NCBI GenBank assembly: GCA_963422735.1 | Contig: OY730476.1 | Span: 384,001 to 448,000, forward strand | Reading direction: 5' to 3' | Source of the DNA: Candidatus Latescibacterota bacterium | GTDB taxonomy: Bacteria; Latescibacterota; UBA2968; UBA8231 | DNA length: 64,000 nucleotides | Shown here: piece after piece, positions 6,557 through 35,268 of the stretch | Layout of the letters: every line of letters starts with the position of its first letter | Numbering within the stretch: the first letter of the stretch is position 1 | Made by a program: the position numbers and the translations under genes | The notes under the pieces: generated by a model | The model's input: the letters and a program-made list of their open reading frames with translations, nothing else | Databases searched by the model: none | Told to the model about the DNA's origin: nothing

Positions 6557-6736
6557 TTAGGAAGTGCATACCGCAGTCCCGCTCTCGCACGTGCAACTGG
6601 TCTTCCAACCGATTGCCTTGCACTTACTCCCATCAGGGCAAGTGATACTGCAATAAATAGCCTCGGCCTTCTGCGGCAGGAAGCTGGCGATCAAGCTCGT
6701 GAGGCCAATGGCCAGCCGGATGATGCGCTTTTTCAT
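6557..6736 (-). CDS. Cys-rich secreted precursor peptide 1 (59 aa, not in ORF track)
   Basis: MKKRIIRLAIGLTSLIASFLPQKAEA-IYCSITCPDGSKCKAIGWKTSCTCESGTAVCTS*; SD AAGGGAG; leader shared with three paralogues; 6 Cys. Confidence 0.9.
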   Translation of the reverse strand: MKKRIIRLAIGLTSLIASFLPQKAEAIYCSITCPDGSKCKAIGWKTSCTCESGTAVCTS

Positions 6737-6895
6737 GATGATCTCCCTTGATCTGGTTTGCTGCGTTGTCTCGGAGGCGATCTCCGAGGTGAAGCACTGG
6801 CGGCTAGCGGCCAGTTTAGACGATGTGTTTTATAAGCGTTACTTCCTTTCTGTTGCTGTGGAAGAGTGTGGGTTGTTGCTTCAGTAAGACCTATC

Positions 6896-6910
6896 GCAAT
6901 CTTCGTGCCA
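6896..6910 (-). promoter_or_regulatory. Sigma-54 -24/-12 promoter
   Basis: TGGCAC-GAAGA-TTGC. Confidence 0.88.
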
Positions 6911-7055
6911 ATGCGTGACCAGTGGTCGTCAATCGCGCCGAATCCTCTGATTATATGAATCATAACTTATTGTTAAGTAATGGTTTATAAAAAATAAACT
7001 AAATTTTATCGCCGTCTCTCAGGCCCTTTGTGCGACCCTTTTAACGGCCTAAAAG

Positions 7056-7093
7056 TGCGATAATATATCGCACAAATGCGTCTAAACATCGCA
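7056..7093. promoter_or_regulatory. Tandem 17-bp palindromic boxes (putative enhancer/UAS)
   Basis: TGCGATAATATATCGCA and TGCGTCTAAACATCGCA, 21-bp period, ~145 bp upstream of the sigma-54 site. Confidence 0.8.
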
Positions 7094-7236
7094 CGGACGC
7101 GCCTGTCGGTTGTACTAAGCCGCCCTTGCTCTGAAGGGGTCGGCTGGGTCGGCTTCTCAGGGAGGGTGTGGGCAGACGCACCAGCGGGCAGCCCGGTCCT
7201 ATGGGCTGCCCGCTTTATTCGTTGTGGAATTTCAGA

Positions 7237-8808
7237 TTACTTGGCGTCGTAGCGCGCAAAGAGCCAGTTGGCGAGGACAAAGAGCCCGGCCGCATACAGC
7301 AACAGGGCGGTTAGATCCGGCAAGGCGTGGCTCAGACTCCTGGCGGCCGTCCAGCCGCGCTCGTGAAACCTCGGCAAGTCGCGCAGGTCGGCGCGCCAGC
7401 CGGGGTCGTCGTTGAACCACTCGCGGGCCCCGAAGGCATCGCGCTCTTCGAGAAAGGTGACGAGTTGCCCGCGATAGGCGCGGACTTGGTTGATGAAGTC
7501 GTAGTATTCGCGTCGGCTGGTGCCGGCGAAAACACTGGCGGCTTGGGCATAGGTCCCGGCGGGCAGAAGGCGCTGGAGATAGGTGTTCCAGCGTTGGATG
7601 CGGCGGGGGAAGTTTTCGAGCAGGGGAGCTTTGGCGTGCCAAGCGCGCTGGACGTACTTCAGGCGCAACCGCTCGCCGGTGCGGATGATGTTTTGGAACT
7701 CGGCGAGTGCGGGCGAATCGACTACATTCGACATATAGAGAACAGGTTTCTGCTCATCGTCATAGTAAGCGCCAGTTCCCCCCCAATGTGTTTTAGTCCC
7801 GCGTCCCGGTTGTGGAGGGAGTTGCTCAACCATCTCTACGGGTTGGTACTGGGTCTGGCCGTGCGCCCGAGCGAGGTTAGTGACCTCCTGATCGAACTCC
7901 TTCCACACTTGCGCGGCCCTGTGATGGGCTTGCTTGTGCTTTTCGCCCATGTTGGCTTGCTCGTTGAGCCAGGCCGTGATACTGTCGGGCAGCACAATCG
8001 CCAGCAGTGCCCACATAAACAGCGCGTAAATCAAGCTGGTCGCCGAGCGGTGCGTGGCGCACGAGATCGCCAGTCCAATTAGATAGAACACGAGCAGATA
8101 CAGCAGCGACAGTGCGAACAGCAGCCCCAACCGCGCCCACTCGCCGGTCCCGATCTCGATATGCTCGGTGCCCAATAGCAAGATCATCAGCAGGATAAAG
8201 CCGAGGGCGGTCGGAATGGCCAGCGTGGTCAGGCCAGCGAGGACTTTGCCGGCGAGGACTTGGGCGCGGCTGACGTTGGTCGTCAGCATCAGCCGCAGGG
8301 TGCCGTCCTCCTTTTCGCCGGAGATGGCTTCGCTGGCGATGAGAATGGCCAGCAGGCCGAGCACGAGTTGGAAGATGTACACTATGTCGAAGGAGGCAAA
8401 GATGGCGAGGTAGGGATTGCCCGACTGGAAGGGAGCAATCGCCTCGGTTTGGTAGGGCACCTCAAAGAGCAGGACCTTGACGGCTTGCCCCACCTCTTGT
8501 TCGACGCCTTGGGCGAACACCTCCAAAGGGCGTGGGGGCCGTAGAGCACGCGGAGCCGCCTCGGCATCGAATACACCGACGACCGGACCGAAGTGGTCGC
8601 TGCCTAGGGCCGAATAATAGGTGATTTCGTAGAATTTGTTGTCTTCAACGGCGCGTTGGGCGAGGTAGCTGGACTTTTTCTGGACATAAGTCTGGCTGAT
8701 GAGCATCCCGTTGGCGATGATGAGCACTACCGCGAGGGCGGTGCAAGCGGCGAAGCGCTGGCTGAGCAGGTGGCTGAGCATCTCTTTTTTGAACACAATG
8801 CCGATCAT
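7237..8808 (-). CDS. ABC-2 family permease, paralogue type A (copy 1)
   Basis: MIGIVFKKEMLSHL; SGEKEDGTLRLMLTTNVSRAQVLAGK motif; TM segments; C-terminal FARYD. Confidence 0.88.
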   Translation of the reverse strand: MIGIVFKKEMLSHLLSQRFAACTALAVVLIIANGMLISQTYVQKKSSYLAQRAVEDNKFYEITYYSALGSDHFGPVVGVFDAEAAPRALRPPRPLEVFAQGVEQEVGQAVKVLLFEVPYQTEAIAPFQSGNPYLAIFASFDIVYIFQLVLGLLAILIASEAISGEKEDGTLRLMLTTNVSRAQVLAGKVLAGLTTLAIPTALGFILLMILLLGTEHIEIGTGEWARLGLLFALSLLYLLVFYLIGLAISCATHRSATSLIYALFMWALLAIVLPDSITAWLNEQANMGEKHKQAHHRAAQVWKEFDQEVTNLARAHGQTQYQPVEMVEQLPPQPGRGTKTHWGGTGAYYDDEQKPVLYMSNVVDSPALAEFQNIIRTGERLRLKYVQRAWHAKAPLLENFPRRIQRWNTYLQRLLPAGTYAQAASVFAGTSRREYYDFINQVRAYRGQLVTFLEERDAFGAREWFNDDPGWRADLRDLPRFHERGWTAARSLSHALPDLTALLLYAAGLFVLANWLFARYDAK

Positions 8809-8871
8809 GGTGCGGCTCCTATCGGTGGGAGGTGAGTGGCTACGGCGCAGGCTTGGGTCTGCCCCTGATTT

Positions 8872-9927
8872 TCAGGCCGCCCGAGCCGGATGCCGCCGCA
8901 GCAAGGCTTCTATCTCGGCCAGCTCGTCGGGCGATACCTCTCCGTACCGCTCGTGCAGATGCAACAGGTCGCGCAAGACTAATTCGGCGGGCATGAGCGG
9001 ATCGGGCCAAATGCCCGCCCGCCACAGTTCGATCAACCACAGCTTGGGGTCGCCGTTTTCCCGTACCATATAGTCGATGGCTTGTTCCCGGGTGCGCTGC
9101 TCGGCGGCGAGTCTGCACGGATCGGAAAACTCGTGATAGTGGTACAAGTGATACGTCAGGGCGTGGCGGGCAAAGCCCGGACCGACGCCGACGCGCTGCA
9201 ACCGATAGGCCAAATCCCATCCCTCGGAAAATGGAATGTCCGCCGCAAAGCCGCCCACCGCGCCGAAGGCTTGGCGTGGCACCGCGCTGTTGTGCGGATA
9301 GAAACCGAGAAAGCCCAGTGGCGAATCCGGATGCGCCGCGAACAGTGCCGCGACCTGATCTTGCATGGTCTTCAGTTCGTCAAAGGGATAGCCGCCTTCT
9401 TGAGCACGGGCGTGGATGCCGGCAAAGTCGTGGCGGATTTGGTCTTCGGTGATCAGCACCTGCTCTCGATGGAGCCGCAGGAAGTCGGCTAAGACGCTCG
9501 GGGTGCGCTCGGGGTCAAAGATGGCCTGCTGCGGGTCGGGCAGATACTCGAGGAGGGGCAGGCTATACAGGAAGCCGCACACATAGCGCTGGCGTCCTCC
9601 GCGCTCCCATTCCGCCCAAAGGTGCTCCAACCAACCGGGATGCGGCAAGGCGTCGCCGTCGAGAAAGGCCACCAACTGGCCTCGCGCCTGTTCGACGCCG
9701 GCATTGCGTGCTAAGCAGCGACCCACGTTGGGACGCATCGGCACCACGTGTACGTCTGGATATTCAGCGGCTAGCATGGCGTCCGTACCATCGGTGCAGC
9801 CATCGTCAACGACGATGATCTCAAAACGCTCCTTGGGAAAATGCTGGCCGGCCAAGCCACACAACACCAAGCGCAGGCGCGCCCGCTGGTTGTGGGTGGC
9901 AATGACGACGGAAGTATCGAGGCTCAT
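8872..9927 (-). CDS. Glycosyltransferase family 2 (intact copy)
   Basis: SVVIATHN, IIVVDDGCTDGT, ARNAG, FLDGD (DxD), VGGF..EGWDLAYRL, HLYH. Confidence 0.9.
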   Translation of the reverse strand: MSLDTSVVIATHNQRARLRLVLCGLAGQHFPKERFEIIVVDDGCTDGTDAMLAAEYPDVHVVPMRPNVGRCLARNAGVEQARGQLVAFLDGDALPHPGWLEHLWAEWERGGRQRYVCGFLYSLPLLEYLPDPQQAIFDPERTPSVLADFLRLHREQVLITEDQIRHDFAGIHARAQEGGYPFDELKTMQDQVAALFAAHPDSPLGFLGFYPHNSAVPRQAFGAVGGFAADIPFSEGWDLAYRLQRVGVGPGFARHALTYHLYHYHEFSDPCRLAAEQRTREQAIDYMVRENGDPKLWLIELWRAGIWPDPLMPAELVLRDLLHLHERYGEVSPDELAEIEALLRRHPARAA

Positions 9928-10079: not shown

Positions 10080-12590
10080 TCACTGGCATTCAAGGGTCAA
10101 ATGGCATTCGTAGTGCAATCCTTCGGGTATGGTTAGCTGCCGGTTGGGTTCGGTCGCGGCGTTGGGGTTGGGCACCATGAGCTGGGGAATGTCCACGACT
10201 GACTTGGAGCACATTACCCGGTGGCAGTCTATGTGGCCAAAGTAGTAATCGATAAACGCCTCGCTGTGTCTCTCAATGCGCTGGCGCAGCAGGGGGTCGG
10301 TGACGTTGTCCGCGGTCATGGCCTGACGGCTCAGGGCGATGCCGTGAAATTCCACTGGAAACCAACCGGTCGCGCTCGTATATAGCTCCACCCAAGTGTG
10401 GCCGAAGATAGGGGTGTCATACGTGCTAATGCCATAGCGATCCGGTCCTTGCGGTGCTACGACCAAGCCGCCGTTCACCTCGCGGGCGGGAATGTCCAGC
10501 AGGCGGCACAGTGCCATATAGGTGCGGCTCAAGGTAATGCAGTGGCCGCTGTCTTCGCGGAGCGTCATGGACGTACTACAGGCTAGGCACTGGCACTTTT
10601 CGTTGGTTTTCTGGAAACGCTTGCTGCGCGAAAGGCCCTCGTACAGGCGGCGGGCCTTATCGACCTCGCTTAGGCCCGGTTCGTCGAGCTGCAAATCGGC
10701 GAGGAAGTCGCGCACCAGACGCGACCGGCTCAGGGAGTCTTCTATTTGGGTGTAGTGGCGGTGTTCGCTAGGCGTCAGCGGCGCAGGAACGCGCCCGGCC
10801 ATGGGTAGGTTATGCACCTCGACTTCGCAGGAATACGAGAATTCTAGCGTCCTATCGGCTGGCTCAATAGAGCAGGGATAGGCGTAGAAAAAGCCGGCGT
10901 GGGGTGCCAGATAGGGACGCAATTGGCTCGGATTGCAGGCGATCAGCTCGACGACTGGCTGCTGGGAAAGGTGCAGTGGATAGGGCAAAAATAGCCGCGC
11001 CGACCCGCTGCTCGCGCAAGAGGTTACATGCGCCTTGTAGGTATAGGTCACTCGGTAGCGCTGGCTAGATTGGCGCACCTTTAGCCTGCCGTTGCAAAGC
11101 GCGAGAAAAGGCGCTCGCATCTGTTCCCGCATTTGGTAATCCAGCTCGAAGAAGCGCGGCTCGTGATCGTAGAGCCAGTTCCACGAACTCCGCTTGTTGT
11201 ACCACACCAACCGCCCCTGACGCACGTGAGGTATGCCCCGCTGGCGCGCCTCGGCGAGCAGGGCGCGGAGGGTCGGCAGGGGAGCGGGGCCGGTCAGGGG
11301 GTAGAGATGGCGGATAAATTCGTCCTCTAACACCATGTTGTCTTGCTCAATCGGGTCGTTGTGATAGAGCATCTTATCGATTACATCCGCGGCGATGTCC
11401 CCGCCTTTATAGGCGGATAGGTGCTTGACAAAGGCGGCACAGCGGGTGCTGAATTCTTCGTAGTGGTCGAACAGGTAGCGCACTTGCTCGGCTAGGTCTT
11501 CGGCTTGGGCCAGGCACTGGCGCGGCAGTTTCAGGCCCAGCCCCAAGTCGCGCACTCGGTTGAGGTGGTACTCTTGATCGAGATGTTCGGGTGCCCCTAG
11601 GATCGGTACTCCCTCGGCTAGCGCGTGGTAGATAGAGCCAATGCCGCCAACGCCGATAAAGAGCGCAGCGTGGCGCATGGCCAAGCGGGCAGGCAGATAT
11701 TCGACGATCCGCACGTTGGCCGACGGGGCTTCCGCTGCATAACGGCCGGCCGTGGTTACTAGCAAGCGAAAAGGCAAATGGGCAAATGTTTGGAGGATGG
11801 CTGGCAAAAAGTGGTCGTCAACGCCGGTGCTGCCGCAGTTGAAGTACACTAAGGGCAGCGAGGTATCCCAGCCCTCGTCGGCCAGTGCCGTAGGTGGTTC
11901 GTCGGCTGTTGGCTCGTCTTCGATGAGCGGGCCGATGTAGTAATAGGAAGGAGGCACTGGCCCGGCGGACGGATGGAATTGGGGTACATCGGCCAGCAGG
12001 AATGCGCTGCGGTGAGGCCGCTGCTGGGCGAAGTGTTCGGCTAGGTATTCGTCCAAGCAGCCGGCTTGCATCGGGAAGTAATCGGGCAGGCGAATGGGGC
12101 TGGAATAGGCGGGCAGGTTGTACGCCGCGTCTATAAAGGCAATGTCGATGCCTTCCAAAGCGGCTGTTAGCCGCAACGTGGGGCGCAAATCGGCGATGAG
12201 CAAGGAGGGCTGCACTTGGCGCACGAGTGCTTGCTCCGCCTCGATGCAGCGCCGGATCCATTCGTCGTTGTAATATTCGTACTCGCCCCGCGCTAGGTGC
12301 TCGTCCATGCGCTGTTGCGGCATAGTTTCGACGTCGTAGAGCGGGAAGCCTTCGGCTGCAATGCGCTGGGCGTGCGGCCCTCGTCCGGCGAAGAGGACCT
12401 CGTATCCGCGCTGGCGCAGCGCACGCGCCACTACGAGCGGGCGGATGGTGTGGGCCAAGCTATAGCCGTGAAAGAAGACGAGGAGGCGATGCTGGTCGCG
12501 CTGGAGGGTGGCCTCTTGCTCCATTTTGGCCAGAAAGGCGTTCCAAACGGTGAACCAAGCCCCAAACTTTTTGTTGAGTTGTGCTAACAT
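10080..12590 (-). CDS. GT-B (GT1/MGT-like) glycosyltransferase fused to transglutaminase-like domain (copy 1)
   Basis: N-half GYSLAHTIRPLVVARAL..RGYEV, GGIGSIYHAL..GVP....PEHLDQ; C-half GHCITLSRTYMALCRLLDIPAREVNG, HTWVELY, GWFPVE. Confidence 0.82.
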   Translation of the reverse strand: MLAQLNKKFGAWFTVWNAFLAKMEQEATLQRDQHRLLVFFHGYSLAHTIRPLVVARALRQRGYEVLFAGRGPHAQRIAAEGFPLYDVETMPQQRMDEHLARGEYEYYNDEWIRRCIEAEQALVRQVQPSLLIADLRPTLRLTAALEGIDIAFIDAAYNLPAYSSPIRLPDYFPMQAGCLDEYLAEHFAQQRPHRSAFLLADVPQFHPSAGPVPPSYYYIGPLIEDEPTADEPPTALADEGWDTSLPLVYFNCGSTGVDDHFLPAILQTFAHLPFRLLVTTAGRYAAEAPSANVRIVEYLPARLAMRHAALFIGVGGIGSIYHALAEGVPILGAPEHLDQEYHLNRVRDLGLGLKLPRQCLAQAEDLAEQVRYLFDHYEEFSTRCAAFVKHLSAYKGGDIAADVIDKMLYHNDPIEQDNMVLEDEFIRHLYPLTGPAPLPTLRALLAEARQRGIPHVRQGRLVWYNKRSSWNWLYDHEPRFFELDYQMREQMRAPFLALCNGRLKVRQSSQRYRVTYTYKAHVTSCASSGSARLFLPYPLHLSQQPVVELIACNPSQLRPYLAPHAGFFYAYPCSIEPADRTLEFSYSCEVEVHNLPMAGRVPAPLTPSEHRHYTQIEDSLSRSRLVRDFLADLQLDEPGLSEVDKARRLYEGLSRSKRFQKTNEKCQCLACSTSMTLREDSGHCITLSRTYMALCRLLDIPAREVNGGLVVAPQGPDRYGISTYDTPIFGHTWVELYTSATGWFPVEFHGIALSRQAMTADNVTDPLLRQRIERHSEAFIDYYFGHIDCHRVMCSKSVVDIPQLMVPNPNAATEPNRQLTIPEGLHYECHLTLECQ

Positions 12591-12659
12591 GGCTCTCTAC
12601 TTTCGCAAAGTTTTGAACACAGCGGCGATCATGACGGACTCTTGGGGCATAAAGGCTTC

Positions 12660-13457
12660 TTACATGCCCAACAGAAACATGTGTGTTTGCGGTACGCCAG
12701 TACTGAAAAAGGCTTCTACGTGTCGCCACACGGCCCGCTCTTTGTCCCACACGAGCCGAAAGAAGGACGGAGTTCGTCCTGGCGTCTCAAATGTGGCGAA
12801 CTCCTCTGGCTCTTCGACGATGAACATGATGTCGGCGAAGACCATCTGCTCGCCTCCCGCTAGGCGCGTTTCAATTTCTTCGCGCAATGGGGGCGTTATA
12901 GTGGTGCAGCCCTTGGGAAGCATACCGTGGGTTTGGGCGTAGGACTGATAGCTATCGTACTGTTTCTGCATGTAGAATACCCTGAACTCGCTATCGAAAA
13001 AAAATGCGTTTGCAAAAAAGTAGTCGCAGTCTAGATCCGCGAGTGTTTTTTGATATTCGGCTTTGACCTTTTCAAATAATTCTGGAATGCCACGCTTTAT
13101 CTTTAAGTCCGGGTTTTTAATCCTTTCACGTAGATAGAAGGTGGCAGCTAGACTATCGTTGCCCGAAGCTGAAAAGGCGACCAGCAAGTCGTAGAGCCAG
13201 TCGCGTAGCCCCGCTTCTTGTTCGAGATCAATAGCCGTCCCCAGATCAATGGGCACGGCTTCTACGGCTTGCCGCAATTGGGGGCCATCTTCAACCGTCA
13301 TCATCTCTTGGCCGTGAATGTAGTCGTAGAAGACTTGAATACTGTCGGGGGAAAAGCCGCCGTATTGGCTTTTCGTCTCGGCGGCGACCCTGCCGGGGCA
13401 GTACAGCCAAGCTGCGGCAAAGGCCAAGCACAGGGTGCGAACTGCGAGCGTTTTCAT
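12660..13457 (-). CDS. Secreted protein family X paralogue
   Basis: Start MKTLAVRTLC after AAGGAG; signal peptide; shared family motifs. Confidence 0.82.
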   Translation of the reverse strand: MKTLAVRTLCLAFAAAWLYCPGRVAAETKSQYGGFSPDSIQVFYDYIHGQEMMTVEDGPQLRQAVEAVPIDLGTAIDLEQEAGLRDWLYDLLVAFSASGNDSLAATFYLRERIKNPDLKIKRGIPELFEKVKAEYQKTLADLDCDYFFANAFFFDSEFRVFYMQKQYDSYQSYAQTHGMLPKGCTTITPPLREEIETRLAGGEQMVFADIMFIVEEPEEFATFETPGRTPSFFRLVWDKERAVWRHVEAFFSTGVPQTHMFLLGM

Positions 13458-13537: not shown

Positions 13538-13552
13538 GCAATAAGCGTACCA
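13538..13552 (-). promoter_or_regulatory. Sigma-54 -24/-12 promoter
   Basis: TGGTAC-GCTTA-TTGC(A). Confidence 0.8.
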
Positions 13553-13664
13553 ACAGGATGCTAATTGCTCGTTGATATTGTTTAAGTATTTATTAAACAA
13601 TATCTTAGGGGAAAAAACAGCAGGTGCTCGGCTGCGTAGTAGATGCGGTTTTGCAACCTATCGG

Positions 13665-13702
13665 TGCGCTAAGATATCGCAGTCCTGCGATATCTTAGCG
13701 CA
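13665..13702. promoter_or_regulatory. Tandem UAS boxes forming a perfect inverted repeat
   Basis: TGCGCTAAGATATCGCA-gtcc-TGCGATATCTTAGCGCA. Confidence 0.8.
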
Positions 13703-21905: not shown

Positions 21906-22844
21906 TTATCGCGTCAGGGCCAACACGGGTATGAGCACCTGCTCCGCGCCGATTTGGACCTCTACCCCGCAGTTTAGCGTACCATCAGGGAAATCGTCTG
22001 TGTTGCGGATCTGGACGACTACGCTATGGTCAGCTTCCCGTTGATATGAGATGTCCAGTTGCATCTCGCCACACACGGGCGACGCCTGTATGGGCGCGTT
22101 GGCTAATTCTGCTGGCAAGCCTACGCGCACTTGGCGCGTTTCGCGTCGCTGCGCTGCGCCCACGCCGAAGGACGCGCTCTGCGGTGCTAGGCTAAACCGG
22201 GGGCTGACCCGGCCGCGCACTTGGATGGACCGGGGGTGCTCTTGGTCCTCGGCGGCAATCGTCGCCTCGAGGGTGGCGATGATCCGGTCGCCCCACGTCA
22301 AGCCGGCTGCCGGAGCGATCTCTATGGCTGTACCGTCATCTACCACTGTTGCCGCAATGCCTTTTCCCGCGACCTGAACCCGGCGAATGTGCCTCGGCTG
22401 ACCGTCGATCTGCGCGAGGGGAATGTGTCGGATAATGGAGGATAGATCGTCGCCTTGGATCGTCCCCAAGTGCAGTTTGCTGGGCAGCATGGGCACGACC
22501 TGTCCCTCCAACTGCAACTGCCATTTATCGGCTTGGTCGGCCACGCTAAAGTCAATGCTGGGGGTAAAAGTCCCGGCTCGGCCCGAAGTGTCGATCTGGT
22601 AGGTAATCGAGTACGTCTCGCCGGCCTTCAACGGCCCTTGGGGGAACTCGACGCCGGTGCAGCCGCAGCCGGGTTCGGCCGCGACGATTTCCATGTCGTA
22701 GGGCGCGACAAAGCGCACCTCGCCGGTCGTGCCCTCGCTGTCGTAGGTCGTGCCGTACTCGGCGGTCTGCGGCAGTTGGTCGGCAGCCAATCCTGTGTAG
22801 AACACGGCGGCTAAGGTCGTTACTTGTAGCGTTAGCTTGTTCAT
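21906..22844 (-). CDS. Secreted DUF1573-like Ig-fold protein with CGC motif
   Basis: Signal peptide; EIVAAEPGCGCT...PLKAGE...LQLEGQV pattern. Confidence 0.7.
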   Translation of the reverse strand: MNKLTLQVTTLAAVFYTGLAADQLPQTAEYGTTYDSEGTTGEVRFVAPYDMEIVAAEPGCGCTGVEFPQGPLKAGETYSITYQIDTSGRAGTFTPSIDFSVADQADKWQLQLEGQVVPMLPSKLHLGTIQGDDLSSIIRHIPLAQIDGQPRHIRRVQVAGKGIAATVVDDGTAIEIAPAAGLTWGDRIIATLEATIAAEDQEHPRSIQVRGRVSPRFSLAPQSASFGVGAAQRRETRQVRVGLPAELANAPIQASPVCGEMQLDISYQREADHSVVVQIRNTDDFPDGTLNCGVEVQIGAEQVLIPVLALTR

Positions 22845-22883: not shown

Positions 22884-23720
22884 TTACATGAGGCTGAACA
22901 GAAAGGCCTGCGGTACGCCGCGGCTAAAATAGACCTCTACATGGCGCCACATAGCCCGCTCTGGATCCCAGACTAGTCGGAAGAAAGACGGGGTGCGTCC
23001 CTTCCATGACCAAGAGGAAGCCCCTGCAGGCTCTTCGACGACGAACATGATGTCGGCAAAGACCAACGACTCGCCCATCCGTAGAGCTTTCTCAACCTCT
23101 CTCTGTAGTTTGGGGCGATAACTCAAGGTGCCTCTGGGAATCATGCCGTGCGTCTTTAGGTAGAACTCATAGGTATCGTATGCCTCCTGCATCTCTAACA
23201 CCTTGAACACGCTGTCGAAAAAGGACGTATTCTCGAAAAAGTATTCGCGTTTTGCCGCGCCGAGTATGTACCTATGCACGGCTGTAAAGATGGCAAAGGG
23301 CGTATAGTTTGTTGCTTTTGGTACCCCTTTGTTTTCGAGTTGCTTTTTCAACTCCTCGATCGCTTCGGGGTTATTGGTGCCCTCGCGGAGATAAAACGCG
23401 GCGGCGAGACTGTCGCTGCCCGAGGCCGAAAAGGCGATTAGAAAGTCGTAGAGCCAAGTGCGCAGACCGGCTTCTTGCTTCAGGTCAATGGGAGCCTCCA
23501 GAGCGACGGGAATCGCCTCGATGGCCTGCCGCAATTCGGCCCCAGCCTCGACCTTGATCATCTCTTGGCCGTGAATGTAGTCGTAGAAGACCTGAAGGCT
23601 GTCGGGATGGGATGAGAAGCCGCCGTACTGACTTCTAGCCTCGATAGGGGCTGCGCTGAAAACGGCGAACCAGATAGCGATCAGGGGGACATACAGGGTG
23701 CGAATGGCTAAAGGTTGCAT
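22884..23720 (-). CDS. Secreted protein family X paralogue
   Basis: SD AAGGAGG; signal peptide; shared motifs. Confidence 0.85.
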   Translation of the reverse strand: MQPLAIRTLYVPLIAIWFAVFSAAPIEARSQYGGFSSHPDSLQVFYDYIHGQEMIKVEAGAELRQAIEAIPVALEAPIDLKQEAGLRTWLYDFLIAFSASGSDSLAAAFYLREGTNNPEAIEELKKQLENKGVPKATNYTPFAIFTAVHRYILGAAKREYFFENTSFFDSVFKVLEMQEAYDTYEFYLKTHGMIPRGTLSYRPKLQREVEKALRMGESLVFADIMFVVEEPAGASSWSWKGRTPSFFRLVWDPERAMWRHVEVYFSRGVPQAFLFSLM

Positions 23721-25072: not shown

Positions 25073-25087
25073 GCAATACTCGTGCCA
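25073..25087 (-). promoter_or_regulatory. Sigma-54 -24/-12 promoter
   Basis: TGGCAC-GAGTA-TTGC. Confidence 0.88.
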
Positions 25088-25292: not shown

Positions 25293-25565
25293 CGGGTTAG
25301 TTGGTGCGAAATGGGTGGCGGGTTCTCGCTATAGATGCAGCCAAGGGTGAGAAGTCGCAGACAAGAATTGCTGCACCACGTCTTGGAGTTGCGGATGGTG
25401 CAGGTTGCACGAGCAGGAAAATAGGCAGTCCGCTATGCTTAGGACTAGGGATTAGTGCGTTTCAGGTCGCTCAGAAACGGATTCGTCAAGAGTACCCGAA
25501 TCAATGGGGTACTACCTCTACGACTTGATGCAATTGGGGATCTAGGGACCGGTCTCGGCCTTCGA

Positions 25566-26064: not shown

Positions 26065-26080
26065 GGTGGTCTCTTTGTAT

Positions 26081-26767: not shown

Positions 26768-26784
26768 CAAGTTGCTCCTTATTG

Positions 26785-29307: not shown

Positions 29308-29360
29308 GGCGTGCTGCTTTCACCGAAAGGTGTAGGGTATTGCTTCTGCTAGCATTACTT

Positions 29361-29375
29361 GCAGTTATCGCGCCC
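29361..29375 (-). promoter_or_regulatory. Degenerate sigma-54 promoter
   Basis: GGGCGC-GATAA-CTGC(A): GG and GC correctly spaced, at the position equivalent to the other units. Confidence 0.45.
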
Positions 29376-29500
29376 GTTGTGAGCCAGCGGCTGGCAAATG
29401 GGCTAACGAAATTGAGCTAACTACCTGTTAGATAAGGAATTATAAAAGTAACGATAATTTTTGTCGAGCCTTTTGCCGCAATCGCTTGACCCTATGAAAA

Positions 29501-29559
29501 TGCGACAATATATCGCATAAGTGCGTCTAATCATCGCGTTAATGCGATTCATCATCGCA
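29501..29559. promoter_or_regulatory. Three UAS boxes
   Basis: TGCGACAATATATCGCA, TGCGTCTAATCATCGCG, TGCGATTCATCATCGCA; 21-bp period. Confidence 0.78.
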
Positions 29560-29784
29560 CCGGTGCGGCGGTTGGTTGTGGTGTAGGTCCTGCTCAGTGG
29601 AACGGTTCTGCCGCCTGCCGAGGCAGCGGAACGACGGCGGAACGGGCGGCGAGTGTTTACTAGCAATGCGGCCGGGGCCGGGAAGTGGGCCGCCCGGCCT
29701 ATGAACTACCCGCTTTGGTCTGGTAGCCTGTGTGTTTAGGTGCTCCGGTTGTCTCGGCGTTGCGGCGATTAAGGACGCCTCCTT

Positions 29785-31239
29785 TTAGACAATGCTGGCA
29801 CGCAGCCACGACCGATAGGCGAGCATGTAGGTGAGCACGGCAAAAAAAGAGAGACCGATTACATTGACGACGGCGTGTTGCAGCAAGGTTGTCGCCGACA
29901 GGTCTTCGGTGAAAACCGGCAGGGTGTCGGGGTCGATTTTCTGCCGCGACAGCCCTTGGGCGACGAGGTGGATGTGCAGGCTGTTGGGGTCGTCTCGGTC
30001 TCGGTTGAGCAGGGTCTGCTCAAACTGCTGGACAAAGGTGCGCGCCTGCTCGACAAAGCTTTTGTGGCGCGCCAGCCCGGTGCCGGCGAGCGCCTCCATG
30101 CCATACTGAAAACAGCCCATGGGCGACAGGCGCACGATGTGGCGGGCGTTTTCGATCTCGCCGAGACTGTGAGCCAAAAAGCGGTCTTCGCGGTCTTGGT
30201 GAAATTGGCGCACAGCGCGTTGGGCGTCGGCCAACTGACGAATCTTCTCGGGGTTTTTCAGATCGCGGTGCTGTAAACGGAAAGCGAGGTCATGAAGTTT
30301 ATCGTGGGCTGGCGTGTTATTATTTGCAAAGCCCCATCCCAGCACTAGCTCCTCCTCGAATTCGCTGACCAACACGCGGGCGGCCAGGGCGCCGCCGGTG
30401 GCCGGCCAGAGCAACACCCCGCAGGTCCACATCAACAGAACGCCTACTAAACTTGAGCGTGTCGTGCTGCTCCATATCGACACCCACAGCCCCAACGCGA
30501 TAAAGCAGGCCAGATACAAAAGCGATAAGCCGACCATACCGATGATGCGCCCGGCCTCGACGAGATCCAAGTTCACCTTAGACAGCGCGAGGACGATGAG
30601 CAAGTTGACGACGACGGCGAGGCTCAGCACGAGGGCGAGAGTCAGCATCGCGCTGAGGAATTTGCCCAACAGCAGGGTGTGGCGCGGCAGGCTCTGCGCC
30701 ATGACCAGCTTGAGGGTGCCGCGCTCTTTTTCGCCGATGAAGGCGTCAAAGGTAAATAATAAGGCCATGAGGCTGAGCAGGCCGCCGATGATAAAGACCC
30801 AGTCGATGGCTTGGGTCTTCAGCAGTTGGCTGGCCTTCGGTGCCCAGATGTTGATGATGTCCCAATAGATGAGTACAAAGGGATGATAGACTTTGATGCC
30901 GTTGGAAGTGTGTTGGTACCCGCCCGTTGTCCTAAGGCGCTCGGGCAGGGCGTCGTCGGCACCAGTGGCACAAAACATGAGGGGGCTGGGTTTTTTATAG
31001 ATATAGTGCTGCCCCGACTGAAGGATCAGCTTCCACAGGCCCTGTTGGGCGTTGCGGTGCCCCACTTCTTGCTCAGTTTGGACTTGCTCGAGATAGTGGT
31101 TGCGTCTGAACTCGTAGGATCCGCCGACAAAGCTGAGGGCGTTGAGCACCATCAGCCCGACCGTCAGCACGAGGGCCAAGCCAAAGCGCAGGCTGAGGAG
31201 GTGGTCTATCAGTTCGCGTTTTACAATAGCGGCTAACAT
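29785..31239 (-). CDS. ABC-2 family permease type B (copy 4)
   Basis: Start MLAAIVKREL; close paralogue of 17805-19256. Confidence 0.88.
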   Translation of the reverse strand: MLAAIVKRELIDHLLSLRFGLALVLTVGLMVLNALSFVGGSYEFRRNHYLEQVQTEQEVGHRNAQQGLWKLILQSGQHYIYKKPSPLMFCATGADDALPERLRTTGGYQHTSNGIKVYHPFVLIYWDIINIWAPKASQLLKTQAIDWVFIIGGLLSLMALLFTFDAFIGEKERGTLKLVMAQSLPRHTLLLGKFLSAMLTLALVLSLAVVVNLLIVLALSKVNLDLVEAGRIIGMVGLSLLYLACFIALGLWVSIWSSTTRSSLVGVLLMWTCGVLLWPATGGALAARVLVSEFEEELVLGWGFANNNTPAHDKLHDLAFRLQHRDLKNPEKIRQLADAQRAVRQFHQDREDRFLAHSLGEIENARHIVRLSPMGCFQYGMEALAGTGLARHKSFVEQARTFVQQFEQTLLNRDRDDPNSLHIHLVAQGLSRQKIDPDTLPVFTEDLSATTLLQHAVVNVIGLSFFAVLTYMLAYRSWLRASIV

Positions 31240-31270
31240 GAGAAGGCATCTTTCTCCGAAAGGGGTTTCC

Positions 31271-32851
31271 TCACATGGCGTCGTAGCGCGCAAAGAGCCG
31301 GTTGGCGAGGACAAAGAGAATAGCTGCATAGAGCAATAGGGCCGTTAGAGCTGGCAAGGCGTAGCCCAAGCTCTCGGCGACGGTCCAGCCGCGCTCGTGA
31401 AACCGCGGTAGGTCGCGCAGGTCGGCACGCCAGCCGGGATCGTCGTTGAACCACTCGCGGGAGCCAAAGGCATCGCGGTCTTCCAAAAAGGCGATGATCT
31501 GCCCGCGATAGGCGCGCACTTGGTCGATGAAGTCGTCGTATTCGCGTCGGCTGGTGCCGGCGAGGATGCTGGCGGCTTGGGCGTAAGCCCCGGCGGGCAG
31601 GAGGCGTTGGAGTTGGTCGTTGAGGCGTCGGATGCGGTGGGGGAATCCTTCGAGCAGTGGGGCCTTCTCGTTCCAAGCGCGCTGAGCGTATCTCAGGCGC
31701 AACCGCTCACCAGCGCGGACGATGTCTTGGAACTTAGCCAGCGCGGGCGAAGCGACGACATTAGACAAATAGAGGAGAGGCGTCTGTCCGTCTCTTTTAG
31801 AGTAGGTTCCAGTTCCGTCATTGTGGACTCCAGTCCCTCGATTGGGCTGTGGTTCCCCCAGCTTGACCATATCTGTGGGGTAATACATAGTCTGGCCGTG
31901 CGCCCGCGCGAGGTTAGTGACCTCTTGATCGAACTCCTGCCACACCTGCGCGGCCTTGTGGTGGGCTTGGGCGTGCTTTTCGCCCATGTTGGCCTGCTCA
32001 TTGAGCCAGGCCGAGATGCTATTGGGCAGCACAATCGCCAGCAACGCCCACGTAAACAGCGCGTAAATCAAGCTGGTCGCCGAACGGTGCGTGGCGCATG
32101 AGATCGCCAGCCCAATCAGGTAGAATACCAGCAGATATAGCAGCGACAGTGCCAACAGCAGCCCCACCCGCGCCCACTCGCCGATCCCGATCTCGATATG
32201 CTCGGTACCCAATAGCAAGATCGTCAGCAGGATAAAGCCCAAGGCCGTTGGAATGGCCAGCGTGGTCAGGCCGGCGAGGATCTTGCCGGCGAGGACTTGG
32301 GCACGGCTGACGTTGGTCGTCAGTATCAGCCGCAGCGTGCCATCCTCCTTCTCGCCGGAGATGGTTTCACTGGCGATGAGGATGGCCAGCAAACCGAGCA
32401 CGAGTTGGAAGATGAACACCATGTCGAAGAAGCTAAAGAGGGCGAGGTAGGGATTGCTCGACTGGAAGGGCGAGACCTCCTCGGCTTGGTAGGGCACCTC
32501 AAAGAGTACCACCCTGACGGCTTGCCCCGACTGTCGTTCATCGCCTTGGGCGAATACCTCTAAGGGGCGTGGAGCCCGTAGAGCACGCGCCGCCACCTTT
32601 ACCTTTGGATCGAAACCACCGTCAGGCATGACCGAACGGTCGCTGCCTAGGACCGCATAATAGGTGATCTCGTGGAGCTTGCTCTCCTCAATGGTTCGTT
32701 GTGTGAGATAGCGGTTCTTTTTATAGACATAGCGCTGGCTGGAGAGTACGCCATTGGCAATGATCAGCACGACGGCGAGTATGGTGCAAGCGGCGAAGCG
32801 CTGGCTGAGCAGATGGCTGAGCATCTCTTTTTTGAATACAATGCCTATCAT
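31271..32851 (-). CDS. ABC-2 family permease type A (copy 4)
   Basis: Start MIGIVFKKEM after AGGAG. Confidence 0.88.
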   Translation of the reverse strand: MIGIVFKKEMLSHLLSQRFAACTILAVVLIIANGVLSSQRYVYKKNRYLTQRTIEESKLHEITYYAVLGSDRSVMPDGGFDPKVKVAARALRAPRPLEVFAQGDERQSGQAVRVVLFEVPYQAEEVSPFQSSNPYLALFSFFDMVFIFQLVLGLLAILIASETISGEKEDGTLRLILTTNVSRAQVLAGKILAGLTTLAIPTALGFILLTILLLGTEHIEIGIGEWARVGLLLALSLLYLLVFYLIGLAISCATHRSATSLIYALFTWALLAIVLPNSISAWLNEQANMGEKHAQAHHKAAQVWQEFDQEVTNLARAHGQTMYYPTDMVKLGEPQPNRGTGVHNDGTGTYSKRDGQTPLLYLSNVVASPALAKFQDIVRAGERLRLRYAQRAWNEKAPLLEGFPHRIRRLNDQLQRLLPAGAYAQAASILAGTSRREYDDFIDQVRAYRGQIIAFLEDRDAFGSREWFNDDPGWRADLRDLPRFHERGWTVAESLGYALPALTALLLYAAILFVLANRLFARYDAM

Positions 32852-32907
32852 GGCGCGGCTCCTACGGGTAAGAATCTGTTGAGTTAAGGAAGTTCTGATC
32901 AAATTGG

Positions 32908-33912
32908 TCAAGCGGCCATCGCCTTAAGGACCGCTTGGCTCTGCATTTCCATACCGAGTTGCTTAAACAGGCGCAACGCCGCCACCCACTCTGCCAACGC
33001 CCGCTGCTTGTCGCCATCCTGTTGCGCGTACAGATTGCCCAAGGACACGTAGTTGAAAGCCTGCCTCCTCGCGTTACCCAACTGTCGGCACAGGTCCATA
33101 CAAGCCTCTATATGCCGTTGCGCCCTCGCTAGGTCGCCGGCTGTCATGTAGAGGTCTGCTAGCAGCGTCGCCATGCTGTAGTGACCGCGGGCATGCCCCT
33201 GCGCCACGTAGATGCTCAAGGCTTGGTTGCCACTGCTCAAGGCGCGTTCTGTATGGCCTAAGTCGCGGCTGACCGAAGCGATGGAGCCGAGTTGTAAGGC
33301 CACTTCGAGCGGCGTCCCTTGCTGCCGGGCTGCCGCGAGGCCCGCCGTGAAATGTTGTAGGGCCTGCTCGGGGTCGCCGCGGCGCAGGGCCAGTTGTCCC
33401 AAGCTGTTGAGCAGGTTGCTCGGCACGTCGTTGTCATAGAGGGCGTGGCTGCGATGGAGCCACTGTTGAGCTTTTTCCAAGTCGTTCTGCTGCATGTAGA
33501 GGTTGCCCATATTGTTGGCCATCTTGGCTGCGAGGGCGGCGTCCCCTCCTTCTTGGGCGTGCTGGATGGCCTTATGGTAGTACGCGGTGGCTTCGGCGAA
33601 GTGGGCTTGGCTTTGTTTGATAAAGCCCACATTGCCTTCGACCTCGGCTACATCGCACCGGGAGCGGCTAGGCGAGCAGGCGGCCAATGCCTCTTGGAAG
33701 TACTGGAGCGATTCGTCGAGGTCGCCGGCGATCTCGTAGTGGTGGCCGAGCTGGGTGCAAGTCGCAAAAAGCCCCTTTTGGCATTCCTCGGCGCGAAAGA
33801 GCCGACGCGCTGTTTGGTAGTGGGTGGCCGCTTGCTCGTGCTGCCCCTTCTTGCGGCAGGTATGGCCCGCTTTGAGATGTGTCCACGCCTCGGTTGTTTT
33901 GGGCGAATTCAT
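32908..33912 (-). CDS. Tetratricopeptide-repeat protein (intact)
   Basis: Repeated LG..Y...G...A...Y..AL helical pattern; no signal peptide. Confidence 0.85.
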   Translation of the reverse strand: MNSPKTTEAWTHLKAGHTCRKKGQHEQAATHYQTARRLFRAEECQKGLFATCTQLGHHYEIAGDLDESLQYFQEALAACSPSRSRCDVAEVEGNVGFIKQSQAHFAEATAYYHKAIQHAQEGGDAALAAKMANNMGNLYMQQNDLEKAQQWLHRSHALYDNDVPSNLLNSLGQLALRRGDPEQALQHFTAGLAAARQQGTPLEVALQLGSIASVSRDLGHTERALSSGNQALSIYVAQGHARGHYSMATLLADLYMTAGDLARAQRHIEACMDLCRQLGNARRQAFNYVSLGNLYAQQDGDKQRALAEWVAALRLFKQLGMEMQSQAVLKAMAA

Positions 33913-33924
33913 GGTAGCCTCCTG

Positions 33925-34034
33925 TTATCGCGTCAGGGCCAACACGGGTATGAGCACCTGCTCCGCGCCGATTTGGACCTCTACCCCGCAGTTTAGAGTA
34001 CGGCGATTAGGGCTTTTAGCGTTAGCTTGTTCAT
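33925..34034 (-). pseudogene. Collapsed DUF1573-like gene (only 5' and 3' ends remain)
   Basis: MNKLTLKALIAVL joined out of frame to LNCGVEVQIGAEQVLIPVLALTR*, the two ends of 21906-22844. Confidence 0.88.
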
Positions 34035-34072
34035 GCTCTTGCTCCTTCGTTTGTTGTGTGGAAAGGGCTAGA

Positions 34073-34939
34073 TTACATGGTAGCTAATAAAAAAGACTGC
34101 CGTACACCACGGCTGAAAAATGCCTCTACCGGACGCCATATATTGCGCCCTGAATCCCAAGCTAAGCGAAAAAAGGAAGGAGTACGCCCCGGTATCTCGA
34201 ATGTCGTAAATTCCGCTGGTTCTTCGACGATGAAGAGGACATCTACAAAGAGTATCTTTTCACCTGCCTTTAGGCGTTCTTCTACTTCTGGACGTAGTAA
34301 AAGCTCTAGTGAAGTTATGCCCCGCGGAAGCATGTCTTGGGTCTTGGCATAGTCTTCATAGCTATCGTATCCTTCCTGCATCTCAAACACTTTGAACACG
34401 CTGTCGAAAAAGGATACGTTGCCAAACAGATAGTCGCGTTCCAACTCCTCAAGGACGGCGAACCTGTAAGCAGCTTTGAAAACGTCTAACGGCCTATCGC
34501 CTTCCAGCAAATCAGGCCTTTCGCTCTCGAGATCCACTTTGATGGTCTCTACGATGTCGGGATGGATATTTCCTCCGCGCAGGTAGAAGGCAGCGGCGAT
34601 GCTGTCGTTGCCTGAGATCGAATGAGCAACCAAGAAGTCGTAGAACCAAGAGCGCAGGCTGGCTTCTTGCTCTAGGTCAATGGGAGCACCTAGATCGACG
34701 GGAATCGCCTCTATGGCCTGCTGCAATTCGGCTCCGGCCTCAACCTTTATCATCTCCTGATTGTGTATATAGTCGTAGAAGACCTGGAGGCTGTCGGGGT
34801 GGTATGAAAATCCATTGTATTGGCTTTTAGGAGCGGCAGTGGCTGCGCTGGAGATGTCTTCCTGGGCTATGCCCGCAGATTGGGCAAACCAAGTGGCGAC
34901 TAAGGCGAAATACAAGGTGCGAATAGCTGAAAGTTTCAT
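34073..34939 (-). CDS. Secreted protein family X paralogue
   Basis: Start MKLSAIRTLY after AAAGGAG; shared motifs. Confidence 0.85.
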   Translation of the reverse strand: MKLSAIRTLYFALVATWFAQSAGIAQEDISSAATAAPKSQYNGFSYHPDSLQVFYDYIHNQEMIKVEAGAELQQAIEAIPVDLGAPIDLEQEASLRSWFYDFLVAHSISGNDSIAAAFYLRGGNIHPDIVETIKVDLESERPDLLEGDRPLDVFKAAYRFAVLEELERDYLFGNVSFFDSVFKVFEMQEGYDSYEDYAKTQDMLPRGITSLELLLRPEVEERLKAGEKILFVDVLFIVEEPAEFTTFEIPGRTPSFFRLAWDSGRNIWRPVEAFFSRGVRQSFLLATM

Positions 34940-34971
34940 TTTGTTTTCTCCTTTTAATATGTAGTTATCTT

Positions 34972-35003
34972 GGCGGCAAGTAGTCGGTTGACCACTTGCC
35001 GCC
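34972..35003 (-). terminator. Hairpin downstream of precursor 4
   Basis: GGCGGCAAGT...ACTTGCCGCC stem. Confidence 0.6.
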
Positions 35004-35043
35004 TGTATAGATTGCTTCAACGTTTGGTGTGAGTTCTTGCCGT

Positions 35044-35268
35044 TTACCCGGCAGGGTGGTCCTCGGCTTCGCATACCGCCCTATTGTCAGCGTCGCAGTA
35101 GCATCTGGTTTTGTCGCCAAACACGGGACCACAGCAATCTTTGATGCGGAAAGGCCACTTTCCTCTTGTGCAACATTTGCTACAGGTGGCGGCTAGCACC
35201 TCTTGGGGCACAAGGCTGGCCACTAGGCCCATGAGGGCAATCATCGTTAAGATGATGCGCTTTTTCAT
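35044..35268 (-). CDS. Cys-rich secreted precursor peptide 4 (74 aa)
   Basis: MKKRIILTMIALMGLVASLVPQEVLA-ATCSKCCTRGKWPFRIKDCCGPVFGDKTRCYCDADNRAVCEAEDHPAG; 8 Cys. Confidence 0.9.
   Translation of the reverse strand: MKKRIILTMIALMGLVASLVPQEVLAATCSKCCTRGKWPFRIKDCCGPVFGDKTRCYCDADNRAVCEAEDHPAG

Follow-up and report, generated by a model that had tools for sequence, protein, structure and literature searches.

A genus-restricted family of small cysteine-rich peptides and its predicted partner proteins in a Candidatus Latescibacterota genome

Introduction

What does a bacterium do with a set of short, cysteine-rich peptides whose leaders align with few gaps and whose cores diverge? This question is raised by four minus-strand genes, P1 to P4, in a 64,000-nt stretch of the genome of a Candidatus Latescibacterota bacterium (GCA_963422735.1, contig OY730476.1, positions 384,001-448,000), which is referred to as the window throughout. 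A first-pass annotation had read them as precursors with a conserved, signal-peptide-like leader and hypervariable cores with even numbers of Cys. Here, we report that P1-P4 are genuine members of a family of small, predicted exported mini-proteins that is confined, among the species genomes searched, to a single genus and has six, in some cases eight, invariant Cys residues, and that they lie in repeated gene cassettes together with genes for a second, predicted periplasmic family, here called famX, and for pairs of ABC-2 permeases. Our tentative reading, held with somewhat less than even confidence, is that the locus encodes a diversifying bacteriocin-like peptide arsenal, with famX and the ABC-2 pairs serving self-protection and possibly export too.

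Both the peptide family and famX are new, have no relatives in Pfam, NCBIfam or PDB, and come from an uncultured phylum for which hardly any secreted effectors have been described. A bacterial case of conotoxin-like evolution, beside a predicted partner with a co-varying interface, would provide a tractable system for peptide-receptor co-diversification, and, if active, the peptides would represent compact new scaffolds with natural sequence libraries. Literature searches for cysteine-rich, secreted or disulfide peptides of Latescibacteria found no earlier description of the family.

Results and discussion

The peptide family

Re-reading the window bore out the coordinates and sequences of the four open reading frames (ORFs; Table 1), the core Cys counts of 6, 6, 6 and 8, the ASFLPQKA[EQ]A stretch common to P1-P3, and the C-x(4-5)-A-[VTI]-C motif at the end of all four, which is preceded by CxC in P1, P3 and P4. 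That two of the ORFs were under the listing cutoff is likewise correct, as P1 (59 aa) and P3 (58 aa) are shorter than the default of 60 aa. A profile of seven paralogs (P1-P4 and three members from elsewhere in the same genome) retrieved at least 130 proteins at E<=0.01, none of which has a name or a Pfam domain; these include relatives in other genomes, so that homologous leaders do occur elsewhere. All six Cys are invariant in 85/85 rows of an alignment comprising the P1, P3 and P5-like subtypes. Chance ORFs are ruled out by these homologs together with the invariant Cys.

Among the named loci encoding relatives, 12/13 are titled Candidatus Latescibacterota or Latescibacteria and 1/13 Gemmatimonadota. 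Within the phylum, a peptide match was obtained in 14/168 species genomes, the window's genome included, and all 14 belong to the window's genus; the family thus occurs in 13/30 other species of this genus compared to 0/137 genomes of other genera. The genome under study holds further family members beyond the window.

The leaders of the window peptides start with MKKRII, followed by 13 hydrophobic residues and PQKAEA. The predicted cleavage site was inspected in a set of 124 sequences (120 among the matches listed and the 4 window peptides), 121 of which could be split there, revealing Ala at position -1 in 117/121 and at -3 in 112/121 members. The initial description of the leader as similar to substrates of signal peptidase I holds in that the n/h/c layout and the AxA site are found both in the window peptides and in the 121-member set. 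Type I signal peptides are characterised by a basic n-region, a hydrophobic stretch of 10-15 aa and small side chains at -3/-1; the family leaders show these characteristics, which suggests that those of P1-P4 are type I Sec signal peptides, with cleavage and export as the predicted outcome.

Exactly six core Cys were counted in 111/121 split members and eight in 2/121; two more eight-Cys members fell outside the split pattern. Cys accounts for 17.6% of the core residues. The most frequent frame, C-x3-C-x4-C-x8-C-x-C-x7-C (34 members), has a spacing that we take to be close to the consensus of the inhibitor cystine knot (knottin), in which six Cys form a knot through 1-4, 2-5 and 3-6 connectivity.

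Between the Cys residues, the cores change rapidly. The leaders share a mean pairwise identity of 0.775, compared to 0.207 for the non-Cys core columns (3570 pairs from the 85 rows). For 11 P1-type genes of 9 genomes, the ratio of nonsynonymous to synonymous substitution (dN/dS), which rests on short sequences and summed counts, amounts to 0.30 in the leader and 0.89 in the core, with a value of 1.07 once the Cys codons of the core are left out, and dN exceeds dS in 33/55 pairs. The term hypervariable is therefore justified for the non-Cys positions, but not for the cores as a whole, which group into subtypes that recur, as orthologs, between species. Similarly, a defensin- or conotoxin-style diversification had been proposed, of which the fixed Cys frame and the fast loops stand, whereas the likeness to defensins does not extend to the fold (see below) or to the charge, since 64/85 cores are net anionic. 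The animal conotoxin and defensin superfamilies likewise combine a conserved signal, a fixed Cys frame, fast loops and many paralogs per genome. In contrast to these animal superfamilies, the family described here is encoded in a bacterial operon with predicted cognate binders and transporters, has no propeptide, and comprises orthologous subtypes that persist between species.

An AlphaFold2 (AF2) model of a P1-type precursor, based on the 85-row alignment, reached a predicted local distance difference test score (pLDDT) of 80.4, with a leader helix at residues 2-19 and a core of four strands and no helix. Since the modelled core has no helix, the defining feature of cysteine-stabilized (CS)-alpha/beta defensins fails. 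Bacterial cis-defensins are described as secreted peptides, 30-50 aa long, that contain CxxxC and CxC motifs and, presumably, three disulfides (PMC11561630); as far as its main text goes, this survey names three phyla, and 'Latescibacter' occurs there 0 times (PMC11561630). The window peptides differ from them by the absence of a helix from the core, another order of Cys motifs and a net negative charge. CS-alpha/beta (cis-) defensins were thus rejected as an assignment: CxxxC and CxC are present, yet the AF2 core is all-beta, and the best PDB profile match, a defensin-like protein, has an E-value of 0.73. A Foldseek comparison of the peptide fold with PDB yielded 0 matches at E<=0.001, and the mature peptide had no usable match in the ESM Atlas.

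Predicted control by sigma-54 and an NtrC-type activator

The approximately 400 nt ahead of each P1-P4 start codon are similar in sequence, as seen in a nucleotide alignment of the four upstream regions, and a Shine-Dalgarno-like AAGGAG or AAGGA lies 6-9 nt 5' of each start. Zero-mismatch sigma-54 sites (TGGCACG-N4-TTGC) occur exactly four times in the 64 kb, one upstream of each peptide gene and 145-175 nt from its start codon; with up to 1 mismatch allowed, the window contains 7 sites vs 1.73 expected. Further upstream, dyads of the TGCGAT-N5-ATCGCA type form arrays spaced 21 bp apart. Including near variants, the dyad motif has 30 matches vs 7.67 expected, a number that 0/100 shuffles reached, and 7 dyad-type control regions were identified in the window. 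In loci from other genomes, promoter and dyads were found at like distances in 19/22 peptide genes (after removal of a double-counted gene); P7, P8 and one P2-like gene are the peptide genes without the pair. P7 and P8 are divergent six-Cys subtypes from a second cluster of the genome studied here and are present in 3/31 genus genomes. No TGGCACG-N4-TTGC site or dyad was found within 450 nt of them, and this second cluster may answer to another regulator.

Genes for an NtrC-family activator, a dCache-HAMP histidine kinase and a CBM9-like protein are located directly upstream of the peptide array, the kinase and activator genes are syntenic in other genomes, and the genome encodes RpoN (Sigma54_DBD match, 204 bits). 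Because of this adjacency and synteny, we infer that the neighbouring activator would act on the TGCGAT-N5-ATCGCA dyads. Repeated seven times in 36 kb, this sigma-54/NtrC wiring with a simple dyad operator would constitute a clean regulon.

Several additional features of the upstream regions were observed. A second sigma-54-like site with 1 mismatch (35446-35460, minus strand) precedes the perfect P4 promoter by 29 nt, and the equivalent GGCGCGATTG sequence is kept in all four upstream regions. Each of the 5' untranslated regions (UTRs; 6737-6895, 17226-17398, 24922-25072 and 35269-35416) contains a strong AAAGGAGG site, which in many orthologs precedes a mini-ORF of 5 codons (MKHIV-stop); longer read-through forms of the latter look like the family leader, as though a duplicated leader had been fossilised there. 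Next comes a conserved hairpin (CUCGGAG-AUCGC-CUCCGAG), without covariation. A known RNA element in the conserved 5' UTR was rejected: Rfam gave 0 matches across the window, and RNAalifold on 20 UTRs returned only a single 6-bp hairpin with no compensatory change. Contig pieces of run X10, which is only guessed to be RNA, cover the P4 gene with its UTR (34964-35389) and a portion of P2 (16920-17178); nothing is concluded from them, as contigs reveal neither level, strand nor transcript ends.

famX, a predicted peptide partner

The window encodes six copies of famX, proteins of approximately 270-300 aa with a signal peptide. No match was found in Pfam or NCBIfam, a profile search against PDB gave 0 matches at E<=1, and the best score against the ESM Atlas was 0.87, under the 0.9 from which a match counts as more than a lead. 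All 493 relatives at E<=1e-10 are without a name, and an exhaustive search of 1.84 billion representatives revealed only 57 clusters and no distant kin. By these searches, famX is a new family, with a predicted periplasmic localization. Like the peptides, it is a feature of the genus: famX was identified in 24/30 other species of the genus vs 0/45 genomes of the other genera of the family.

A stand-alone AF2 model of famX based on a 6-row alignment was unusable (pLDDT 50.5). The complex of the famX encoded next to P1 (5599-6417, residues 18-272, 72-row alignment) with mature P1 (residues 27-59, 85-row alignment) was modelled with an interface score (ipSAE) of 0.73 (0.73, 0.16 and 0.76 in the three runs) vs 0.29 for the best control, with a partner pLDDT of 75 or higher and a run agreement of 0% or higher. 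The ipSAE mark applied was reached by 58/80 solved complexes and 2/110 mismatched pairs, a calibration that is approximate given the custom alignments. This model supports binding of famX to its neighbouring peptide. Furthermore, variability within famX is greatest at the 21 modelled interface residues, which match the reference with an identity of 0.52 among orthologs and 0.17 among paralogs, compared to 0.89 and 0.53 for the other 234 residues (orthologs being 9 rows at >=75% identity, reference included, and paralogs 63). The same famX ortholog group (75-83% identity) is encoded downstream of 8/11 P1-type genes in other genomes, and P3-like and P5-like peptides precede other famX groups. 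The modelled interface and this pairing fit the view of famX and its peptide as a cognate pair.

Two long proteins, P0158 (2010 aa) and P0174 (620 aa), match famX residues ~56-114 in 18 and 5 separate stretches, respectively; judging from these matches, the helical N-terminus of famX may occur as a repeat module as well.

Cassettes and transport genes

The repeated parts of the cassettes were defined by all-against-all BLAST and Pfam. A cassette consists, in this order, of the peptide gene, famX, variably DUF1573 and TPR genes, and the ABC-2 permeases B and A, and the array ends with one gene each for a NEW3-domain protein, a TolC-like protein and an ABC ATPase. In other genomes, this arrangement is found again, as CBM9, kinase, regulator, GT1-TGase (a glycosyltransferase/transglutaminase-like fusion, see below), GT2 and ABC2B, followed by peptide, famX, famX, ABC2A, DUF1573, TPR and NEW3. 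Hydropathy analysis of the permeases indicates transmembrane segment (TM) 1, a loop of ~110 aa, TM2-5, the DUF3526 loop of ~170 aa and TM6, which amounts to ~280 aa of predicted periplasmic loops in both the A and B types. The glycosyltransferases and the TPR protein have no hydrophobic segment by the same analysis. A literature search on DUF3526 found nothing.

Some cassette genes look broken, namely the frameshifted TPR copy, the GT2 copy with an internal deletion and the split famX (Table 1), which from their sequences would represent decay or sequencing error. A GT1-TGase remnant of 102 aa retains its own dyads and promoter-like site.

Proposed self-protection or export escort

Within the proposed arsenal, the kinase would phosphorylate the activator, which would then act on the dyads so that all promoters fire together. 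The precursors would pass Sec and be cut after the AxA site, each mature peptide would be held in the periplasm by its cognate famX, and the ABC-2 A/B pairs, together with the shared ATPase and the TolC-like channel, would expel the peptide from the envelope.

The distribution of famX bears on whether these genes protect the producer. famX was found in 25/31 genus genomes and peptides in 14/31, all 14 inside the famX set, leaving 11 famX-positive genomes in which neither of two profiles detected a peptide. In the two peptide-free loci that were inspected (genomes G141 and G136), kinase and regulator genes are followed by one to three famX, ABC2B, ABC2A and NEW3, with no small Cys-rich ORF. Kinase and regulator of these loci are ~84% and 90-94% identical, respectively, to those of the window; they are thus equally conserved without peptide genes, and therefore the sensor does not depend on the peptides. 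The occurrence of famX and ABC-2 genes without a peptide, as judged from gene content, fits orphan protection better than a pure cargo escort, and that sister species have kept them for this purpose is, as part of the arsenal reading, plausible at just under an even chance.

Known systems offer partial parallels. Enterocin P and lactococcin 972, unmodified bacteriocins that depend on Sec, are likewise ribosomal peptides with a general-secretion signal that are encoded ahead of protection or transport genes in a patchy accessory locus. The window family differs from both in that there is no sequence relation, the host is a diderm, control is by sigma-54/NtrC, and the locus has multiple cassettes, ABC-2 pairs with large periplasmic loops, famX and six invariant Cys. 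The lantibiotic immunity system LanFEG with LanI likewise comprises two ABC-2 permeases with one ATPase and a separate peptide binder outside the cytoplasm, and its structural and protection genes are likewise driven by two-component-regulated promoters. However, the window permeases scored 17.4 bits against the MutG-type model TIGR03733 (cut-off 117.2), which places them outside LanFEG; they are also twice as long, famX is unrelated to LanI, and lanthionine enzymes are absent. A functional analogy to LanFEG immunity transporters is possible.

Several results weigh against an arsenal with dedicated self-protection. One of the three famX-P1 runs reached only 0.16, and a passing complex score expresses the model's own confidence only. 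The ABC-2 permeases remained far below the cut-offs of the lantibiotic, PSM and SagH permease models, and domain scans of the window proteins revealed no HlyD-type adaptor. The anionic cores are unlike most membrane-active peptides. The peptide-negative counts rest on two profiles, which divergent leaders could escape, and the related genomes are not independent samples. Moreover, searches of this genome, a single contig at 95% completeness, gave no match for DsbA, DsbB, VKOR or Thioredoxin_4, and none of the 25 famX-positive genomes of the genus yielded a DsbA or a DsbB. Finally, in a crude, uncalibrated and merely indicative screen (a simple signal-peptide rule applied to stop-to-stop frames), 424 predicted exported proteins contained 0.37% Cys vs 1.43% in 2447 others, 150/424 had no Cys, and even counts were not favoured (0.41 vs 0.47).

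A rival account, which we consider unlikely, is that the peptides are cargo directed not at kin bacteria but, for example, at a host, a grazer or another microbe, and that famX, for which no immunity role is then required, acts as a periplasmic holdase or adaptor handing the peptide, possibly reduced, to the ABC-2/ATPase/TolC-like machine for a second step of secretion. The signal-peptide features of the precursors, the large predicted periplasmic loops of the permeases, the OEP and ATPase genes at the end of the array and the predicted famX-peptide binding all agree with such an escort, and the absence of DsbA/DsbB matches suits a holdase for reduced peptides that are oxidised outside the cell. 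A precedent exists in the heat-stable enterotoxin STII, a small Cys-rich peptide with a Sec signal whose secretion involves DsbA and that is taken from the periplasm by the ABC machine MacAB and exits via the TolC-type channel (PMC5985334). In contrast to that system, the window permeases belong to the ABC-2 family rather than to MacB/FtsX, no MacA-like or other HlyD-type adaptor was seen in the window, and no DsbA was found in the genome, whereas the OEP is present. For a pure cargo escort, the 11 genus genomes that keep famX without a detectable peptide, including the two inspected ones with peptide-free loci of regulator, famX and ABC-2 genes, would be odd.

The disulfide question

The first-pass annotation had considered the case that all Cys are paired, against which two results speak: the oxidation enzymes DsbA, DsbB and VKOR were not found, and the exported proteome is, by the crude screen, poor in Cys and has no even-number bias. 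The peptides are striking Cys outliers among the exported proteins. With six invariant Cys destined for an envelope without detected DsbA, DsbB or VKOR, where and how the peptides oxidise is a puzzle; oxidation may take place once they have left the cell or follow some unrecognised route, or their Cys may serve otherwise.

DsbD-like and thioredoxin-like proteins are present in the genome. For the sulfhydryl oxidase Erv1/ALR, no match was obtained, but the control likewise remained unmatched in every genome. Across the genus, DsbB was found in 4/31, DsbA in 5/31 and VKOR in 0/31 genomes, and all Dsb-positive genomes are famX-negative: G117, G121, G122 and G131 have both DsbA and DsbB, and G128 has DsbA only. 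This anti-correlation of DsbA/DsbB with famX probably marks two subclades.

A bolder interpretation of the same data is that the locus represents a self-contained, Dsb-independent route to disulfide-rich, possibly glycosylated effectors, in which famX would be a holdase or immunity protein of a new, peptide-specific kind. We regard this as unlikely, and equally doubtful is its corollary that the six-Cys superfamily persists by means of dedicated, co-diversifying famX partners as a bacterial counterpart of conotoxin-type superfamilies.

The glycosyltransferase-transglutaminase fusion

Orthologs of GT1-TGase (>=71% identity) were identified in 10/13 other peptide-positive genus genomes, with a broken copy in G140, vs 0/17 peptide-negative genomes. 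Ser/Thr residues had been noted in the first-pass annotation as candidates for O-glycosylation should all Cys be paired; the locus does contain GT1-TGase and GT2 glycosyltransferase genes, of which the former co-occurs with the peptides. The GT part resembles the small-molecule GT-B enzymes OleD, CalG and YjiC (best E 4.7e-9); its GT-B motif is intact, and the transglutaminase core keeps its Cys and His. From its sequence and gene context, GT1-TGase may modify the peptides or make another product in the same regulon. Its association with the peptides could be inherited, because the related genomes are not independent.

That the fusion, with or without GT2, modifies the peptides, the leader serving as a recognition element as well, in the manner of ribosomally synthesized and post-translationally modified peptides (RiPPs) or glycocins, would be compatible with the arsenal, but we consider it clearly improbable. 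The co-occurrence across the genus, the dyads and sigma-54-like site that place GT1-TGase in the same regulon, the intact catalytic motifs and a leader conservation unusual for a plain signal peptide argue for it. However, the enzymes have neither a signal peptide nor a TM segment, and the fusion is predicted to be cytoplasmic, whereas the peptides carry a Sec-type leader; the nearest solved GT relatives act on small molecules (macrolides, enediynes); only two of the four window cassettes carry GT1-TGase/GT2 genes, which are also absent from the P5 locus; scans of the window found no radical SAM, LanM/LanC, YcaO or C39-ABC domains; and the co-occurrence may reflect mere shared ancestry. Glycocins are made with a SunS-type GT2, a double-glycine leader and a peptidase-ABC exporter, and adopt a helix-loop-helix fold. 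The peptides were not assigned to this class: GT2 is encoded in two cassettes, but the leader ends in AxA rather than GG, a C39 ABC protein was not found, and the modelled fold is all-beta.

Metal binding and signalling as improbable alternatives

In a further, very improbable reading, the six Cys remain reduced as ligands of soft metal ions, constraint falls on the Cys alone as in metallothioneins, and the ABC-2/TolC-like system removes the loaded peptide. The missing DsbA, DsbB and VKOR, the Cys-poor exported proteome without even bias (in the crude screen), near-neutral evolution at the non-Cys core positions, and the CxxxC and CxC motifs in acidic cores would be in line with such a role. 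Yet 6 or 8 Cys are present in 113/121 members, even numbers being what pairing predicts; AF2 gave a confident four-strand fold (pLDDT 80); the many paralogs, each with a variable-interface partner, are ill explained by metal handling; and domain scans of the locus revealed no metal-sensor or metal-pump domains. That the peptides are quorum signals for the adjacent dCache kinase in a positive feedback loop is scarcely credible: the kinase-regulator pair does lie beside genes apparently under its control, resembling peptide-induced bacteriocin loci such as nisin, but kinase and regulator are equally conserved in peptide-free loci and across differing peptide sets.

Features of the window

Table 1. 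Peptide genes, control elements and cassette genes in the 64,000-nt window. GT, glycosyltransferase; TGase, transglutaminase-like.
Feature	Coordinates	Strand	Description
P1	6557..6736	-	59-aa precursor, ATG; 26-aa signal-like leader and 33-aa six-Cys core
P2	17007..17225	-	72-aa precursor, GTG start; six-Cys core, distinct subtype
P3	24745..24921	-	58-aa precursor, ATG; hydrophobic six-Cys core
P4	35044..35268	-	74-aa precursor, ATG; eight-Cys core
Sigma-54 promoter of P1	6896..6910	-	TGGCACG-N4-TTGC, perfect match
Sigma-54 promoter of P2	17399..17413	-	perfect match
Sigma-54 promoter of P3	25073..25087	-	perfect match
Sigma-54 promoter of P4	35417..35431	-	perfect match
Dyads of P1	7056..7093	-	two tandem 17-bp TGCGAT-N5-ATCGCA type, 21 bp apart, putative activator sites
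Dyads of P2	17558..17595	-	two tandem, upstream of P2
Dyads of P3	25234..25292	-	three tandem, upstream of P3
Dyads of P4	35576..35613	-	two tandem, upstream of P4
Internal control region	13538..13702	-	sigma-54-like site (1 mismatch) and two dyads (13665-13702), before famX-GT1/TGase-GT2-ABC2B genes
Control region of GT1-TGase 26785-29307	29370..29559	-	three dyads (29501-29559) and weak GG-N10-GC site
Control region of GT1 remnant	36559-36575 (dyad); 36537-36554		related N8-spaced site at 36537-36554
NtrC-family sigma-54 activator	36834..38240	-	receiver, AAA+ (Sigma54_activat E 3.4e-70) and HTH_8
dCache-HAMP histidine kinase	38243..40501	-	
CBM9-like secreted protein	40411..41211	-	heads kinase-regulator operon
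famX next to P1	5599..6417	-	272 aa with a signal peptide; binding of mature P1 predicted
Second famX of cassette 1	4718..5559	-	split in two ORFs
famX of cassette 2	12660..13457	-	
Second famX of cassette 3	22884..23720	-	
famX next to P3	23766..24677	-	
famX next to P4	34073..34939	-	likely start at 34939
ABC-2 permease type A (DUF3526)	3239..4678	-	paralogs 13818-15278, 17805-19256, 29785-31329
ABC-2 permease type B (DUF3526)	7237..8808	-	paralogs 15291-16967, 19279-20853, 31271-32911
TPR protein	32908..33912	-	frameshifted copy 20893-21893
DUF1573 protein	21906..22844	-	single gene
NPCBM_assoc (NEW3) domain protein	1714..3225	-	hydrophobic segments at N- and C-terminus
TolC-like outer membrane efflux protein (OEP)	323..1855	-	OEP E 2.4e-35
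ABC ATPase, 5' part	1..298	-	single gene; runs off left window end; genome 383576-384298
GT-B glycosyltransferase/transglutaminase-like fusion (GT1-TGase)	10080..12590	-	836 aa; paralog 26785-29307; remnant 36118-36426
GT2 glycosyltransferase	8872..9927	-	copy with internal deletion 26081-26794

Additional loci and rearrangements

Past the regulator operon and an RNase H gene, 42171-45909 (plus strand) encodes a pyridine nucleotide-disulfide oxidoreductase followed by two class-V aminotransferase-like proteins.

The P7 and P8 genes are located at ~1.92-1.95 Mb of the genome (15668-15868 of locus L002 and 12610-12897 of locus L003, both on the minus strand), and their leaders are related to those of P1-P4, but different. 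A 3.8-kb stretch (genome 383447-387274, that is, window 1-3274 and left flank), covering part of the ABC ATPase gene, the OEP gene and the NEW3-domain gene, is duplicated with 99.8% identity at 1925776-1929603. There, at a distance of 1.5 Mb, the second copy forms the end of the second peptide/famX/ABC-2 cluster. The duplicate reflects either a recent segmental duplication or a problem of the assembly.

At genome position 38744-39244 (plus strand; ~6744-7244 of locus L004), a decayed ORF that adjoins GT1-TGase remnants consists of a family leader that runs directly into a famX fragment, followed in turn by a C-terminal piece of an ABC-2 permease; from its composition, it looks like a relic of cassette recombination. 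Furthermore, contigs of runs X6 and X7 (window 16500-36000) join different cassettes, for example by linking 35283 with 17249, shortly before the P4 and P2 starts, or 23457 with 34661, from famX to famX, and one contig is without one 21-bp dyad unit at 25234. The joint sides are short and may stem from relatives; they hint at cassette shuffling and dyad copy-number change in related bacteria.

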